Positions 12,664 to 50,243 of a DNA stretch of 64,000 nucleotides are shown here, piece after piece. The stretch's first letter is position 1. Each line of letters begins with the position of its first letter. The notes under the pieces were generated by a model. That model did not search any database and was not told the DNA's origin. It was given only the letters and a program-made list of their open reading frames with translations. This DNA is from Stegostoma tigrinum (lineage: Eukaryota), in the NCBI RefSeq assembly GCF_030684315.1, contig NC_081362.1:64708586-64772585 (forward strand). Direction: 5' to 3'. A program made the translations under genes and the position numbers.

Positions 12664-12795
12664 AGTCATATACAGACAGTCAGATTCCATAAACAACAAT
12701 GAAAGGACTCATTAATTAGCTGTTTTTCTCCCCCATGGCACTGGTTACAAGAAGATTTCTTATCAGAACAGCTGCAAAACCATTACTTTTCTTCA

Positions 12796-13004
12796 GAGAT
12801 AATGGGAACTGCACATGCTGGAGAATCTGAGATAACAGTGTGGTGCTGGATGAACACAGCAGGCAATGCAGCATCTTAGCAGCACAAAAGCTGACATTTC
12901 GGGCCGAGACCCAATGAAGGGTCGAGGCCCAAAATGTCAGCTTTTGTGTTTCTAAGATGCTGCTTGGCCTGCCGTGTTCATCCAGCTCCACGCTTTGTTA
13001 TCTC
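12796..13004. mobile_element. Inverted pair of PLE terminal repeats (family 1), non-coding
   Basis: Two arms matching the 3' end of the PLE at 31980-32101, in opposite orientation, centred ~12913; flanked by ACTTTTCTTCA (12785-12795) and ACCTTTCTTCA (13005-13015). Confidence 0.85.
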
Positions 13005-31033: not shown

Positions 31034-32101
31034 CAACCTCCGGATACAACGCATTATCCTCCGACACTTCCGCCATTTACAATCCGACCCCACCACCCAA
31101 GACATTTTTCCATCCCCTCCCCTGTCTGCTTTCCGGAGAGACCACTCTCTCCGTGACTCCCTTGTTCGCTCCACACTGCCCTCCAACCCCACCACACCCG
31201 GCACCTTCCCCTGCAACCGCAGGAAATGCTACACTTGTCCCCACACCTCCTCCCTCACCCCCATCCCAGGCCCCAAGATGACATTCCACATTAAGCAGAG
31301 GTTCACCTGCACATCTGCCAATGTGGTATACTGCATCCACTGTACCCGGTGCGGCTTCCTCTACATTGGGGAAACCAAGCGGAGGCTTGGGGACCGCTTT
31401 GCAGAACACCTCCACTCAGTCCGCAACAAACAACTGCACCTCCCAGTCGCAAACCATTTCCACTCCCCCTCCCATTCTCTAGATGACATGTCCATCATGG
31501 GCCTCCTGCAGTGCCACAATGATGCCACCCGAAGGTTGCAGGAACAGCAACTCATATTCCGCCTGGGAACCCTGCAGCCATATGGTATCAATGTGGACTT
31601 CACCAGTTTCAAAATCTCCCCTTCCCCTACTGCATCCCTAAACCAGCCCAGTTCATCCCCTCCCCCCACTGCACCACACAACCAGCCCAGCTCTTCCCCC
31701 CCACCCACTGCATCCCAAAACCAGTCCAACCTGTCTCTGCCTCCCTAACCGGTTCTTCCTCTCACCCATCCCTTCCTCCCACCCCAAGCAGCACCCCCAT
31801 CTACCTACTAACCTCATCCCACCTCCTTGACCTGTCCGTCTTCCCTGGACTGACCTATCCCCTCCCTACCTCCCCACCTACACTCTCTCCACCTATCTTC
31901 TTTTCTCTCCATCTTCGGTCCGCCTCCCCCTCTCTCCCTATTTATTCCAGTTCCCTCCCCCCATCCCCCTCTCTGATGAAGGGTCTAGGCCCGAAACGTC
32001 AGCTTTTGTGCTCCTGAGATGCTGCTTGGCCTGCTGTGTTCATCCAGCCTCACATTTTATTATCTTGGAATCTCCAGCATCTGCAGTTCCCATTATCTCT
32101 G
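31034..32101 (+). mobile_element. Young 5'-truncated Neptune-type PLE (copy B) with an uninterrupted GIY-YIG domain
   Basis: Open frame to the stop at 31748 (TFPCNRRKCYTC...VYCIHCTRCGFLYIGETKRRLGDRFAEH); complete pLTR plus tail; perfect 13-bp TSD ATCCAGGACAAAC at 31021-31033 and 32102-32114. Confidence 0.95.
31970..32003 (+). ncRNA. Minimal hammerhead ribozyme motif in the PLE terminal repeat
   Basis: TCT-CTGATGA(31973-31979)-A-GGGTCTAGGCCC-GAAAC-GTC-AGC; predicted cut after 32000. Confidence 0.65.
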
Positions 32102-41739: not shown

Positions 41740-44105
41740 CCATCATGTAAACCATTGATGCAAATTGTGAAAAGCTGAGAGTTCAGCATTGTTCCCTACA
41801 GGACTCCAATTGTCACATCCTGCCAATCAGAAAAACTCATTTTAAACCCACTCTGTTTCTCTCAGCCACCCAATCTTCTACCTGTGCCAATATGTTCCCC
41901 TATACCAAGTGCTTCTAGTTTGTGCAATAGCCTGTTTTGAGGGACTTTGTCAAATGCTTTCTGGAAATTCAAGTACAGTACATCTCCAGGCTCCCCTTTA
42001 TTAGACTGTATATTACTCCTTTAAAGAACTTCAATAAATTAAGTAGAAATAATTTCCCATTCATAAAACCATGTTGAATCATCTGGTTGCCCTGAGGTTG
42101 TCTGAATGCCAAGCTATAAATTCCTTGCTAATAGATTCTAATAACTTCCCATGATGGACATCAAGCCACCTGGCTAATAGTTTGCTGTTGGCTGTTTCAC
42201 TTCCTTCTTGAATACAGGTGTTATATTTATTATAGATAACAACGTTTTGAGCTGGATGAACACAGCAGGCCAAGCAACATCTTAGGAGCAGGAAAACTGA
42301 TGTTTCAGGCCTAGACCCTTCATCAGAAATGGGGGAGGGGAAGGGGTGTTCTGAAATAAATAGGGAGAGAGGGGGAGGTGGATCGAAGATGGATAGAGGA
42401 GTTGCAGTGGGAGAGAGATCCCCTGAGGTTTGTCCAGAGGGAGGAGGGTAACTTCTTCAGGGTAGGCATCCTTAGAAGAGGCTTCGCAGTGGGGTTAAAA
42501 TTATTTCAGAGATAGTAGGAACTGCAGATGCTGGAGAATCTGAGATAACAAGGTGTAGAGCTGGATGAACACAGCAGGCCAAGCAGCATCTTAGGCCTCC
42601 TCCATTTCTGATGAATTGTCTTGGCCTGAAACGTCAGCTTTCCTGCTCCTAAGATGCTGCTTGGCCTGCTGTGTTCATCCAGCTCTACACCTGGTTATCT
42701 CGGATTCTCCAGCACCTGCAGTTCCTACTGTCTCTATTATATTTATTACTTTTGAATCTGATAGTACCTTTTTTCGAATCTGGCAAATATTGGGAAATGA
42801 ACAACAAAACATTTGCGACCTCGTTAGACAATTCTTTTGAGAGCTTAGTATGAAACTCATCAGGTCTCAATGACTTGTATACTTCAGTTCCATCATTTTG
42901 CTCAATATTGCTTCCCTAGTGATTAAAATTTCACTAAGTTCTGCTCTATTTTCCACCTCTTGGTCTATAGCACCTTTTTTTTAATATCCTCTGTAGTGAA
43001 GACAGAAATCTGCTATTTCCTTATTATCTACTATTAACTCTCCATTCTCACCCACTAGAGGAACAAGACTCACTTTGTTTACTCTTTTCCTTTTTAAACA
43101 CCTGTGACATGCTTGTTATCCATTTTTAGCTAGCTTCCTCTCAAACTCTGATCTTTTTTTCCCAATTAATCATGGAGTTATTCTCTGTTGTTCTTTATTT
43201 TCTATCTAATCATCTCACCTGTAACTCACCTTTGTGTCATCAAATGCTTTTTTGTCCCCACCTGAAGTCTGCCTTTTAAAACTTGTTTAGTCAACCACAA
43301 ATAGTGGGTGTCCTGCTAAGATTTTTCTTTGCCCTAAGAATATATTTGGGAATGATGAGATATCCCCTGAAAGGTTTTCTGCTGCTTCTCTATTCATCAA
43401 TCGCCAGCCTAATATCCCAGATCACTTCTTCTGGCTCAACTTTTATGCATTTACTGAAGTTTATAATACTAGCTTAAGACACACACTTGTCCTTTTCAAA
43501 GTAAATGTAAAATTCAATGGTTTTGTGGTTGCTGCTTCCTGGGGGCCTTTACTTTGAGATTATTAATTATTCCTACACAATACGCATATCAAGTCGAGTA
43601 CAAATTGTTCTCTGGTTGTGCTGATTGGACTACTCTAAGAAACTAAATCTCTTCCCCTTCAATCTCAAAAACATTGTATGAACACCTCATGCAGGCTATC
43701 ATTGCCAATCCAAGTTTTCCTGTGTATATGTAAATTAAAAACACCATGATTATTGCTGTCCTTTTATCACGTGTCCAATATTCTTCTATTATATTTCACC
43801 CCTCATTGTGGTAACTGTAGGCCACTCCCATTGATGACTTATTTCCCTTGCTATTCCTTATTCAAGCTGATTCTGCATCCTGTTCTCCTGAACAAAGATA
43901 ATTTCTAACCATTGCACCAATGCTATCCTTGAGTAACAGTTCAATCTCTTCACTTTTATCTAATTTCCTATGTTTCTTGAACATCATATATCCTTCAATA
44001 CTCAGTATTCAATTCATATCTTACAGCCCATCTCTTGTAATGGCTATTAGAATATATTTATTTACTTAAATATGCACAAACACTTGTTAACTTCATTACA
44101 AATGC
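41740..44105 (-). mobile_element. Long, old CR1-like LINE (RT and endonuclease region), interrupted at 42233-42736
   Basis: Reverse complement of gggactttgtcaaatgctttctggaaattcaagtacagtacatc encodes DVLYLNFQKAFDKVP (CR1 RT motif); degenerate colinear sequence continues toward ~44100. Confidence 0.75.
42233..42736. mobile_element. Internally deleted mini-PLE (minus strand, 42233-42595) plus an inverted pLTR (42596-42736)
   Basis: Minus strand runs pLTR end, then ORF start MPTLKKLPSSLWTNLRGSLSHCN, then jumps to 3' UTR and pLTR; perfect 12-bp TSD TTATATTTATTA at 42221-42232 and 42737-42748. Confidence 0.88.
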
Positions 44106-45100: not shown

Positions 45101-45316
45101 GATAACAAAGTGTGAAGCTGGATGAACACAGCAGGCCAAGCAGCATCTCAGGAGCACAAAAGCTGATGTTTTGGGCCTAGACCCCACTCTCTGATGAAGG
45201 GTCTAGGCCGAAACGTCAGCTTTTGTGCTCCTGAGATGCTGCTTGGCCTGCTGTGTTCATCCAGCTCCAAACTTTGTTATCTTGGATTCTCCAGCATCTG
45301 CAGTTCCCATTATCAC
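45101..45316. mobile_element. Inverted pair of PLE terminal repeats (family 1) with a ~35-nt tail
   Basis: Arms 45101-45184 and 45199-45281 are near-perfect reverse complements; hammerhead motif at 45191-45217; perfect 13-bp TSD TGTCCCAATATTT at 45088-45100 and 45317-45329. Confidence 0.92.
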
Positions 45317-46391
45317 TGTCCCAATATTTAACGTTGTGCTTTCCTGAATAAACTATTTCCACATGGAAAACATCCAAATACCAAAGTGAGCCATTCCCCT
45401 TTAATGTGTGGCTTCCTCAAAATGTGGAGCATCATTGTTGACTCAATGTGTCTCTTTGGAAACCTATTCATAATACTAGCTACTTCAAAGAAGATTTGCT
45501 TGATTCTTGTGCAGTTAGTCTGTAACCATAGGCTTCAGGGGTCACATAGAAGAAAAACTACTTAAAATACATGTTTCGCACATCTTAAAGTGTTTATCCT
45601 CATTAGACTCAGCTAATGACTGCCTTGAGCAAGTTTTGAAGACAAATAACATGGACAACACAAAAATCATGATGGGATAGCTAACTGGGATGCTAACACG
45701 ATCAACTGAGACAGAATGTGTTGCTGTACATCCTCTTAAAGGTCTGCAAGATTAACACTTTTTCTTTTTGCACAATGACTATCCAAAAACTAGATTGCCA
45801 TTGAAGAGATAGTAGAGTGCCCCAAACACAAACAATAGTAGCAGAGATCCTGAAAGACTGCATGTAGAATCTCATCTGAGTTGGTAAGTCATTTCAGACT
45901 GTCTCTCATTGACAACTGAAGTGACTTTCGTCAAATAATGTGTAGTTATTCCTTAATGGTGCGTAGTCCTTCAATATCATCTGTAAAATTTGTCCCTAGG
46001 TAGTTGTAAAATGATTGAAACTGCATCATGGGTGTCTTAATCCAATTATCAATCATAATGATTGCAAAAAAAATCTTTGAAGCTCAAGGCCTTAACTCCT
46101 ATTCAAAACATTCTACAGGCAAATTACGTTTGACCTTAGGAACAAATTGGCCTCACTATATTGCCCTACTGTAGCCAGGGTCTTCATGCTGGTCTGTAGA
46201 TTTTATTGACCACACTGCTCAGCTGCAGCGGGTGGATTCTTTCATACTTGTGCCCAAAACTTTCTTGCTGGTTGACATGCACTCAAAACACTGCGATAAA
46301 TGTAATTGCACTAATATCAAATTTTAATAGCAGATCCTATGAATTCTTAATCCTTGGATTCTGAAAAAGCTTCTGCATTGACTATCCAAGT

Positions 46392-46557: not shown

Positions 46558-46659
46558 TTAGTGTTGCAATGGCTCACTTTTCTTGACCACTTGCATTGAA
46601 ATCAGCATTATGCATCTTGCACTTCAATTGCCAGGAAAACTCAGGCCCTGTTTCATTTA

Positions 46660-47000
46660 GAGATAATGGGAACTGCAGATGCTGGAGAATTCCAAGATAA
46701 TAAAATGTGAGGCTGGATGAACACAGCAGGCCAAGCAGCATCTCAGGAGCACAAAAGCTCCGGAGGGAGGAGGGTAACTTCTTCAGGTTAGGCATCCCTG
46801 GAAGAGGCTTCGCAGTGAGGTTAAAATAGTATCAGAGATAATGGGAACTGCAGATGCTGGAGAATTCCAAGATAATAAAATGTGAGGCTGGATGAACACA
46901 GCAGGCCAAGCAGCATCTCAGGAATAAAATGTGAGGCTGGATGTTGTGCTCCTGAGATGCTGCTTGGCCTGCTGTGTTCATCCAGCCTCACATTTTATTA
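46660..47000. mobile_element. Composite mini-PLE of four joined pLTR/ORF-start segments
   Basis: Minus 46660-46759 (pLTR 3' part), minus 46759-46923 (pLTR into ORF start MPNLKKLPSSLR), minus 46924-46943, plus 46944-47000; perfect 14-bp TSD CCCTGTTTCATTTA at 46646-46659 and 47001-47014. Confidence 0.92.
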
Positions 47001-49239
47001 CCCTGTTTCATTTAAATACTGAAACTATGTTCCACAGAAATTTTCCATGTAGGTTATTGTGTTTGACTTGTTTTTGAGAGTGAATTAAGAAACTCCTTAT
47101 TCTTACTTATATTGGCTGAATGCAGGTGGGCAATAAATAACATTTAAATTACTAATATCAAATTCCATAAATAATAAAGCATATTACAATGAAGTTACAG
47201 GGTTATTGTTCAGAAACATGAAGATAACATGTAAAGCAATAGAAGTACAAGAAAGTTGATTCCAAAGGAGCTGACAATATTTGCTTCAAGAATGCTGACA
47301 TTAGTAACTTTATGATTAAAAATATAACATAAAAACTGGTATCGGTTAATTTATTTCCCTGCTTGTGCCAGACACTATGTAGTCATTCAAACAAAACCTC
47401 TTTCATGTTGCAATGCAGCAACGAAGAGATCTTTCCTTAAAATAATTTAAAAGATGCATTTCTAAGGCATAGAGGTGCCAGTGACCTGTGTGCATCAGGC
47501 TGCTGACGATGAAAGGTGAGTAAACTCCAGGCACTGAACAATCTGGGTGGGCAGCAATGAAAATTCTTACAAGATAAGAAGAATAGCTTCATGCATTCAC
47601 CATTAGCAGATCATAGTGGAGTACTATTTCCACCCTCCATTAAAAGTAAAGAAAAAGGAAGCAGTCCCCAGGTTAAAGAGCAGGAAAGTGAATCGCCTGA
47701 AGTGACATAAACATGTGACATTTTAAAATATCAGTTTAGTGTCAAGGCCTACCTGAAAATATCCAGGCCAGAATGCCTGAGGTTAAAAGAAAAGATAATC
47801 AAATTCTACCAAGGGGAGGAAATTCCGGTAAATCATTCACTTAATGAGATCAGTGTGGAGTGGAAAAAATTGTTGGACATTGACAGAGTCAATATTAGTA
47901 CTTTGTTATCTTAACTTAAACTTTATTTTTGTGTCTGTGTTTAAGGCCAGACGCCAGTGAGCTTTGTACTGTATATTTTCATGACCAGCTACCAGTTTTC
48001 CCCAGTGAACTGATCCAAATAAACGTGCAGGTTTTCATCGCTTAAGAAACAAAATATCTTGAACACTGCCCTATAGCCATTAAAACAAAGGCCATTGCTC
48101 ATATGCAAGTATATCCAGCAGAACCAGGGTACAGCGTATCAAATGTCGGTGACATTTACTTTCTTTGACCATTCTCTAGTATTAAAATATTTAATCAATG
48201 ACTAGACTGTCATGTACTTCATCATTTGAGCAAGGCATCGTGTTCAAAAGGAATAATCCAATCCAGTTGGCATTGTTGGTGTTCATTTGTATAGTTGCAT
48301 TGGTTCTGCATGAATCAATGTTTTCATAAGCATTTCATTACATAGTAATGTCTTGTAGCTTAACTCCAGGGATGTAAAATAAAACTAAAGCAACGATTGG
48401 GAAACCTCCCTGAATATCGACTACTTCTTGGATCTGAACTCTGGATTATGAACAGGCTCTTTGATTCCGTATGTAAGTAAATCAAAAGCAATGTTGATGA
48501 CAAATTATGTAAAATTCTTGAGATTATATATTGGTTCCGTGTCAATGCAATACAGACAAGCATCCTGGGAAATTGAAATATTATATATTGTATGCACAAT
48601 GCTGTAATTCTGTGACATATTCTGACCTTATTATGTTTTCCTTGAGTACTTTAATGATTCAAAGTCCACATACAGGCTATTTCAAGGACAGATCCTGAAA
48701 GAACAAATTCTGGTTTAGAACAAGTGTACTTCAGTTATTTTTACTGGAATCGTGCTAATACGAATGGAAATAGAAGGATAGGGTTGTACATTTGACAATG
48801 CTTCCCTAGCCCCTTCTGCTTTGGAACAGACAGCATTAATGTGACAACAGATGTTTTCATTTGATAATGGCATGCAATCAAGATGTGAATTCAAGGCAAC
48901 AGGTTCTGGAGAAGTGGCAAAATGATGTGGCTATGTTCTTAAAACACAGAACTTCCTGAAGAAGATTGCAAAATTTTAATTGATTAAAAGGAGATTTGAA
49001 CATTTAAATTATCTCACAGACATTAGCCTGTATTTTATGTTTAGACTTCATCCACTTTTAGCTGGTTGATGTTGAGTTAGGTGGGGCATGATCATTTAAG
49101 TGCAGATTCATTCTAAATGGTGGGAATTGGATCTCATCTAAAACAAGTCATATCAAAACACACTTCATTCTCCATGTAAACACATCTAAATAATCATTTA
49201 TGCAATACATAAAACTCAAGTATATTTTAGCTGGTAAAT

Positions 49240-50061: not shown

Positions 50062-50243
50062 AAGATAACAAAGTGTGAAGCTGGATGAACACAGCAGGCT
50101 AAGCAGCATCTCAGGACCACAAAAGCTGACGTTTCGGGCTGAGACCCTTCATCAGAGAGGGCTGCTTGGCCTGCTGTGCTCATCCAGCTTCACACTTTGT
50201 TATCTTGGATTCTCCAGCATCTGCAGTTTCCATTATCTCTGAT
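50062..50243. mobile_element. Inverted pair of PLE terminal repeats (family 1)
   Basis: Minus arm 50062-50159 with hammerhead motif (50128-50155), plus arm 50161-50243; 14-bp TSD with 2 mismatches, CACAAAACCATCAT (50048-50061) and CACAGAATCATCAT (50244-50257). Confidence 0.88.

Follow-up and report, generated by a model that had tools for sequence, protein, structure and literature searches.

The minimal hammerhead ribozymes described in Penelope-like elements (PLEs) by Cervera and De la Pena (2014, PMC4209133) lie in the pseudo-long terminal repeats (pLTRs), have no loop 3 and hold a palindromic ACGU, one unpaired base before stem II and G10.1-C11.1, with a helix I of 2 bp in D. virilis; for their cutting in vivo, as stated there, no evidence was at hand. 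The same features recur in a PLE family of Stegostoma tigrinum, which we analysed starting from a 64,000-nt stretch of contig NC_081362.1 (assembly GCF_030684315.1, positions 64,708,586 to 64,772,585, forward strand; hereafter the window). At 46,646-47,014 the window holds a 341-bp PLE insertion between copies of a 14-bp target duplication. Judged from its sequence and from related junctions across the genome, the insertion probably records a reverse transcriptase that ran off a hammerhead-cut RNA at its 5' end and then jumped to the 3' end of a short RNA, either the same molecule or a sister one. For the PLEs of PMC4209133, cutting and circularisation of long precursors were proposed, whereas the statistics of the junctions here suggest that the template is a cut RNA, short and linear.

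Poseidon of Anolis carolinensis (PAc; Frangieh et al., 2024, PMC11167929) resembles the present family in that both target strands are cut and two internal starts give rise to a 30-40 nt tail, and further in its protein-assisted hammerhead and in an RNA requirement reaching open reading frame (ORF) position +172. It differs in that unprocessed RNA is the main substrate and in that the ORF starts inside the hammerhead, here at +139; the portions of the PAc account drawn on here are without end-to-end jumping, a defined oligo(A) 3' end or a contrast in cap-associated G. A parallel for the type of evidence is given by the hepatitis delta virus (HDV)-like ribozyme of R2 (PMC3774820) and the twister variants of Perere-3 (PMC8501958), where genomic junctions or target duplications have likewise been taken as a record of ribozyme cutting in vivo. 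Those ribozymes set the 5' end of the full element, whereas here most RNAs would begin at a capped start and fewer at the cut end, and the junction lies inside a composite insertion. Inverted and partial-tandem PLE insertions (PMC3846280, PMC8557442) share with ours the direct and inverted pLTRs, the tail, the target duplication, palindromes at the inverted junction and a TATA-like box in the pLTR; as described there, however, the palindromes arise via self-priming or are left open, and junction positions are not tied to RNA ends. Animal non-LTR retrozymes (PMC7229834; bioRxiv 10.64898/2026.07.22.740005) also form short head-to-tail pLTR-derived repeats, but each retrozyme unit holds a whole hammerhead, whereas the 175-nt units here lack the core and could not cut again. 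Identity as a non-LTR retrozyme was rejected on this ground, the tandem units starting at +1 and containing no complete hammerhead. A literature search that covered few subscription papers gave no report of PLE junctions at a hammerhead cut; within the literature searched, this type of element, its hammerhead and its pair of start sites have been described before, and a genomic record of cutting was not found.

Positions in the element are numbered from the A of the AGC that follows GAAACGTC, the predicted first base (+1) of the 3' product of hammerhead cleavage. On the minus strand, the insertion reads +62 to +6 inverted, a 21-nt filler, +12 to +174 and then +1 to +100, with the following features:

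47001..47014, minus strand: target-site duplication, upstream copy (TAAATGAAACAGGG)
46944..47000, plus strand: inverted arm, pLTR +6..+62
46923..46943, minus strand: 21-nt filler joining both arms, a copy of pLTR +41..+61 (100% identical to 46699-46719)
46760..46923, minus strand: upstream direct segment, +12..+174, with pLTR, tail and the first 12 ORF codons
46760..46795, minus strand: ORF start with the ATG at 46795 (MPNLKKLPSSLR), in a frame that continues to a DKG motif in locus L069
46759..46760, minus strand: junction CCGG/AGC, donor end +174/175 to +1, 1 nt shared
46659..46759, minus strand: downstream direct segment, +1..+100
46646..46659, minus strand: target-site duplication, downstream copy, its first T common to the element end
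31939..32100, plus strand: reference intact pLTR, hammerhead core at 31973-32000 and predicted cut at 32000/32001

A first-pass annotation of the window had placed the junction between the two direct segments exactly at the predicted cleavage site, and its description of the locus proved accurate. On the minus strand, CCCTCCTCCCTCCGG, ending at 46760, abuts AGCTTTTGTGCTCC, starting at 46759, and AGC directly follows the cut triplet in the intact window copy at 31973-32100 (plus strand). Microhomology is at most 1 nt, the overlap being one A: in 28 of 30 ORF-start-anchored loci the family has A and then C after CCGG, and with a donor consensus continuing ACC, a 3-base (AGC) donor microhomology was ruled out as the cause of the junction. 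The other long segments also begin just past the cut, at +12 (46923) and +6 (46944), none of them including the ribozyme core; the 14-bp duplication is perfect (47014-47001 and 46659-46646), and the repeats agree with each other at every base (100% over 90, 57 and 21 nt). The filler at 46943-46923 had escaped that annotation. Among the contigs listed for four sequencing runs, none spans the locus.

The 3' ends of the family cluster at +62..+68 and +97..+103, in likeness to the pair of internal starts in the anole element. The outer end of the inverted arm falls on the first of these recurrent ends, and the end of the downstream direct segment on the second, with its tail. The downstream segment (+1..+100) is probably the product of a first pass of reverse transcription and the upstream segment (+12..+174) that of a second, and the outer end of the inverted arm would mark the second start.

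The genome (3.2 Gb) was searched for further restarts of this kind, with the donor anchored at the ORF start, the restart on the same strand and its position left free. Restarts from about -26 to +4 were visible in search A and from about -3 to +13 in search B; the two have overlapping loci and are not independent. Search A gave 26 matches, 21 strictly at +1, two more at +1 with a donor C and one ambiguous between -2 and +1, the remainder lying at -6 and at -23 and none at +2 to +4. Search B gave 44 matches, with 32 at +1 (five of those with a donor-supplied C or TC before AGC), eight at +11 and one each near +3/4, +4/5, +12 and +13. With tandem pairs merged, +1 accounts for 21/24 loci in search A and 29/41 in search B (P<1e-25 against a flat null), and the +1 landing of search A has a P of about 1e-28; of the A and G of AGC, the donor supplies no more than 1 nt. 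The excess at GTC/AGC, which the first-pass annotation had proposed as a check, is strong for same-strand ORF-start junctions (23/26 and 32/44), and its caveat of a single event falls away: the exact 28-mer junction occurs at three loci, with no array, and junctions of the same class at 29 loci in search B. The +12 start of the upstream segment at 46923 adjoins the +11 restart site.

The donors in search A share an end as well. Of the 24 restarts that fall on +1 or beside it, 18 have donors ending at +174/175, within a search range reaching about +201, and CCGG is followed there by no A (3), one A (9), two A (3), four A (2) or one G (1); the junction at 46760/46759 is of the kind without A. 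We interpret +174/175 as the 3' terminus of an RNA that bears a few A as its tail; the sequence upstream of it contains no AATAAA. Untemplated T added by the enzyme would be an alternative source of the extra A; templated A is favoured because the same A counts recur at both junctions in three loci. The anole protein requires RNA up to ORF +172 (PMC11167929), which makes it plausible that the RNA is trimmed where the bound protein stops covering it. Restarts at +11 occur in L359 and L360, among others, and in some loci they are also joined to the +175-A(n) end.

When the same ORF-start donor was sought joined to the hammerhead start, 62 genome matches were obtained, of which 22 were excluded from the tally for longer donors or ambiguity. 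The remaining 40 have donors ending at +174..+177, and 32 of them carry a G before -32/-30, after 0-5 A. In other retroelements, such an extra G stands opposite a cap. By hand tallies, the extra G is present in 32/40 junctions at -32/-30 and in 1/18 at +1 (Fisher P=8e-8), a contrast consistent with a single short RNA that occurs with two 5' ends, one a capped start and the other an uncapped cut end, in a proportion of about 40 to 18. In a set of 290 segments, composed of the 273 unselected segments found in 140 evenly spaced 10-kb stretches (1.4 Mb) together with anchored loci and flanks, the main cluster of 5' ends lies at -35..-22 (72/290), and +1 is a minor end (5/290).

All 5' boundaries were counted genome-wide at five positions by exact pattern match to 22 consensus bases with three preceding non-consensus bases, giving 3158 at +1 and 283, 405, 481 and 1455 at -3, +2, +3 and +8, respectively. 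The first 100 matches at +1 comprised 62 AGCT fold-backs, 24 other inversions, five same-strand switches, five flank-joined ends and four small indels. Among the control matches classed (the first 15 at -3, 15 at +2, 20 at +3 and 20 at +8), none was a same-strand switch (5/100 vs 0/70, P=1.8e-4; P=9e-4 if one short templated insert in the control sample, L309, is counted). The +1 peak is class-specific. Perfect 26-nt fold-back palindromes centre on AGCT at +1 in 682 loci, on ACGT at -5 in 47, on GGCC at +28 in 21 and on GC at +10/11 in 270, and palindromy alone is insufficient to explain the AGCT count. The position +8 directly follows a four-T run and has the highest flank-joined count of the five. 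Evenly spaced sampling was too sparse for a test of the peak and was retained as an overall profile.

Seventeen loci with a +1 restart were decomposed into their segments, 11 newly fetched (three tandem and eight from search B) and six from earlier searches. They vary in target duplication, subfamily letters, start site and A count; since duplications, subfamily letters and A counts differ, the loci are taken as independent. Three of them (L348, L349, L350) contain three passes each, with an equal A count at both junctions, and in these the same template was probably reused. The last pass ends again at +1 in 5/17 (L003, L193, L357, L355, L354), and in L355 and L354 this end meets the flank with 2 bases shared or inserted. 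Opposite arms begin at +1 to +9 in 9/9 loci, five of them exactly at +1, compared with 61/290 segments of the larger set; the five among the newly fetched loci start at +9, +7, +1, +1 and +1. In L360, every end lies at +10/+11. As an exception, L006 has +1 joined to a segment starting at -29, so that two different RNAs can serve. Taken together, this speaks for physical ends of the RNA over stalling at random, and for a template that is linear over one that is circular.

The core of the window copy, CUGAUGA-A-GGGUC/GGCCC-GAAACGUC, has the CUGAnGA and GAAA boxes of a minimal type I hammerhead, stem II, the palindromic 15.2-16.2 and an NUH triplet; an Rfam scan gave no hammerhead match at the gathering score. 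Stem II is identical in 132/228 copies and most variants keep pairing, and CUGAnGA, GAAAC and GUH are retained in three families with differing, still-pairing stems I and II, helix I consisting of 3-4 pairs of different sequence in the two others. Folding gave no model of an active dimer, as both the monomer and the two-molecule cofold are predicted to be inactive structures. In L323, L326, L314 and L015, the hammerhead carries small deletions with one end on the cut or close to it; a 2-nt overlap is seen in some of these.

A second hammerhead family, with its cut at GTC/TGA, has 57 boundaries at +1, 31 at +2 and 21 at -3; after removal by eye of likely 1-nt indels and microhomology deletions (9 at +1, 13 at +2), 48 remain at +1 against 18 and 21 (P=3e-4 vs +2 and 1.6e-3 vs -3). 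Four of its loci are exact blunt +1/+1 fusions, equal to the number of its ACGT fold-backs. A third family, whose copies are old and whose cut lies inside a 6-bp palindrome, was excluded from this replication. The two families besides the main one, B (L132, L152, L084) and C (L135), have minimal hammerheads with different stems I and II; the 5' ends of family B cluster near -50 and those of family C at -33..-31. In L107, L108 and L267, the family B pLTR starts at -17 to -13 after a common A-rich end (…TCAAATAAAAAA), which suggests insertion of another element into the family B hammerhead stem.

The main family itself is, by sequence resemblance, a putative endonuclease-bearing (EN+) PLE of the Penelope/Poseidon type, the name Poseidon being given by likeness. 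Its ORF begins MPNLKK, and the reading frame of L069 contains LPKIHK and, as in EN+ PLEs, the DKG motif (IKPADKGGAVVV) of the N-terminal part of the reverse transcriptase (RT), a motif named in PMC8557442. Candidate RT and EN domains are seen in that order, the window copies giving weak matches below the Pfam cut-offs (GIY-YIG, E 8.5e-4 and 9.9e-4; RVT_1, E 0.009). Direct and inverted pLTRs, a 30-40 nt tail and target duplications are present, the latter of 10-17 bp in most decomposed loci, and the genome contains 85,527 matches to one exact 29-mer from the young subfamily. In the reference pLTR, a TATA-like TATTTATT lies at 31939 (-62, plus strand), and the putative capped start falls at about 31969 (-32), four bases ahead of the hammerhead core. 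The window contains four older two-armed insertions of the same family (12788-13003, 42235-42744, 45101-45318 and 50062-50243), most of which retain part or all of the hammerhead. Internal-deletion junctions in L041/L045, L052 and L058/L059, common to two loci or to both arms of one insertion, imply that short non-autonomous derivatives have been transcribed and copied. At G000:C1:49657619-49658731, four ORF-start matches spaced 362 bases apart form a tandem array that may be retrozyme-like.

In the sequence of events that we propose, the pLTR would yield a capped transcript from -32 or -30, 30 nt below the TATA-like box, and this RNA would commonly end at +174/175, followed by 0-4 A. The minimal hammerhead would cut the smaller part of these RNAs, by junction count roughly 18 in 58, leaving an uncapped +1 end; the cut probably takes place in a protein-held dimer, because the core closes stem III only between two molecules. 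The enzyme would then cut both target strands and start inside the RNA at about +100 and +64; both-strand cutting and internal starts have been shown in vitro for the anole relative (PMC11167929). In the DNA, the segment begun at +100 extends as far as +1, where it meets, with a 1-nt overlap, the +174-ended segment running to +12, and the two cDNAs may have been linked via the 21-nt templated filler, leaving the 14-bp target duplication. Template jumping as such, proposed in the first-pass annotation, is supported by the genome-wide excess of junctions at +1, although in many cases the enzyme probably landed on the same short RNA, at its 3' end, and not on another template as that annotation had it.

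That the junction was made in RNA, by ligation of the cut +1..+175 piece into a circle which the enzyme copies round, is distinctly unlikely, and this, too, would require cleavage at +1. Circles have been proposed for PLEs (PMC4209133) and shown for animal retrozymes (PMC7229834), and they would account for the head-to-tail units with identical junctions within L348-L350. Copying round a circle would meet no terminus, but in 5/17 loci the last pass ends at +1, and five of nine opposite arms stop there; the same donor end is also joined to G-marked -32/-30 starts, and L006 joins +1 to a segment starting at -29. A capped end is, to our knowledge, not ligatable, and we know of no ligase that pairs a 5'-OH with an oligo(A) 3'-OH without further processing. 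Very unlikely is also an origin without cleavage, in which the enzyme stalled where the hairpin masking the hammerhead has its base, or AG/AGCT microhomology joined the ends, and the match to the cut site is coincidental. The monomer hairpin of -28..-23 on -4..+2, the palindromic AGCT, the flank-joined ends without a peak and the further hot positions +8 and +11 speak for it. A stall at the hairpin base, however, predicts +3, where same-strand switches are absent (0/26 in search A, 0/20 of the boundaries sampled there), and it would not align all ends within one locus as in L360 (all +10/+11); microhomology is at odds with same-strand switches that share only 0-1 nt, often with an extra A, and the flanking 4-bp palindromes are 15 and 32 times rarer as fold-back centres.

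DNA cannot name the agent that made an end, and the unexplained +11 end shows that other processing occurs, so +1 might be a real RNA 5' end produced by a second promoter or a protein nuclease. We consider this highly improbable: the end fits the hammerhead rule to the base in two families that differ after the cut, and a capped start at +1 should carry the extra G as at -32/-30, which only 1/18 do. A polymerase III start would meet TTTT, the terminator of that polymerase, at +4..+7. To a single or rare origin of the junction followed by spread through a non-autonomous master copy, or to mis-assembly of the locus, we give a negligible chance. Inherited deletion junctions do exist in the family (L041/L045; both arms of L052 and L059), and no listed contig spans the locus; against this, donor ends vary (+67, +70, +161 to +195, +248 and inside the ORF), as do A counts (0 to 4), subfamily letters and target duplications, the exact junction has just the three unarrayed copies, and the target duplication at the locus is perfect.

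Several observations weigh against a run-off at a ribozyme-cut end and temper our confidence in it. Flank-joined ends show no +1 excess (5/100, about 158; P=0.79), the 3, 6, 5 and 6 sampled at -3, +2, +3 and +8 corresponding to about 57, 162, 120 and 437, and the 1455 boundaries at +8 outnumber the roughly 1070 left at +1 with fold-backs and small indels set aside. The +11 restart, seen in 8/44 switches and 270 fold-back loci, is not a hammerhead site; as a guess, the +8 and +11 ends stem from trimming of the cut RNA. In the evenly spaced 1.4 Mb, +1 starts make up 3/273 segments. The AGCT fold-backs, 62 of the first 100 matches, were rejected as stand-alone proof, as +1, +2 and +3 are not separable in them; some of the six earlier-search loci had been found by likeness to the studied locus; and the excess in the second family is modest, about 2.5-fold, with a hairpin base adjoining the cut there too. 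On the side of the ribozyme, helix I of the main family has 2 pairs only (U-A, then C-G or U-G), the monomer folds -28..-23 onto -4..+2 as an inactive hairpin, the hammerhead fold is no better than that of shuffled sequences, and self-cleavage after the NUH triplet is deduced from the genomic DNA record. In the anole, hammerhead mutants left insertion in vitro unaffected, and RNA-seq gave no reads ending at the cut site, as reported in PMC11167929.

Whether animal PLEs are cut in vivo by their minimal hammerheads is treated as an unanswered question in PMC4209133, PMC8557442 and PMC11167929. Run-off at a hammerhead-cut end followed by a jump makes base-exact predictions, namely 5' ends that are capped at -32/-30 and uncapped at +1 and a 3' end at +174/175 with few A, with a cut share near 30% among short templates, and it suggests in concrete terms how PLE insertions could come by their partial-tandem structure. 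A wider joint reading is conceivable, though we would not call it probable: a defined RNA of ~175 nt, cut by the ribozyme at its 5' end and marked by oligo(A) at its 3' end, may be copied reiteratively by this telomerase-related RT, which would return each time from the 5' end to the 3' end, both templates in a dimeric integration complex being cut together as two minimal hammerheads activate each other. If so, the ribozyme would act as a switch inside the integration complex, and run-off and jump from an internal start would be a general source of the partial tandems of PLEs.
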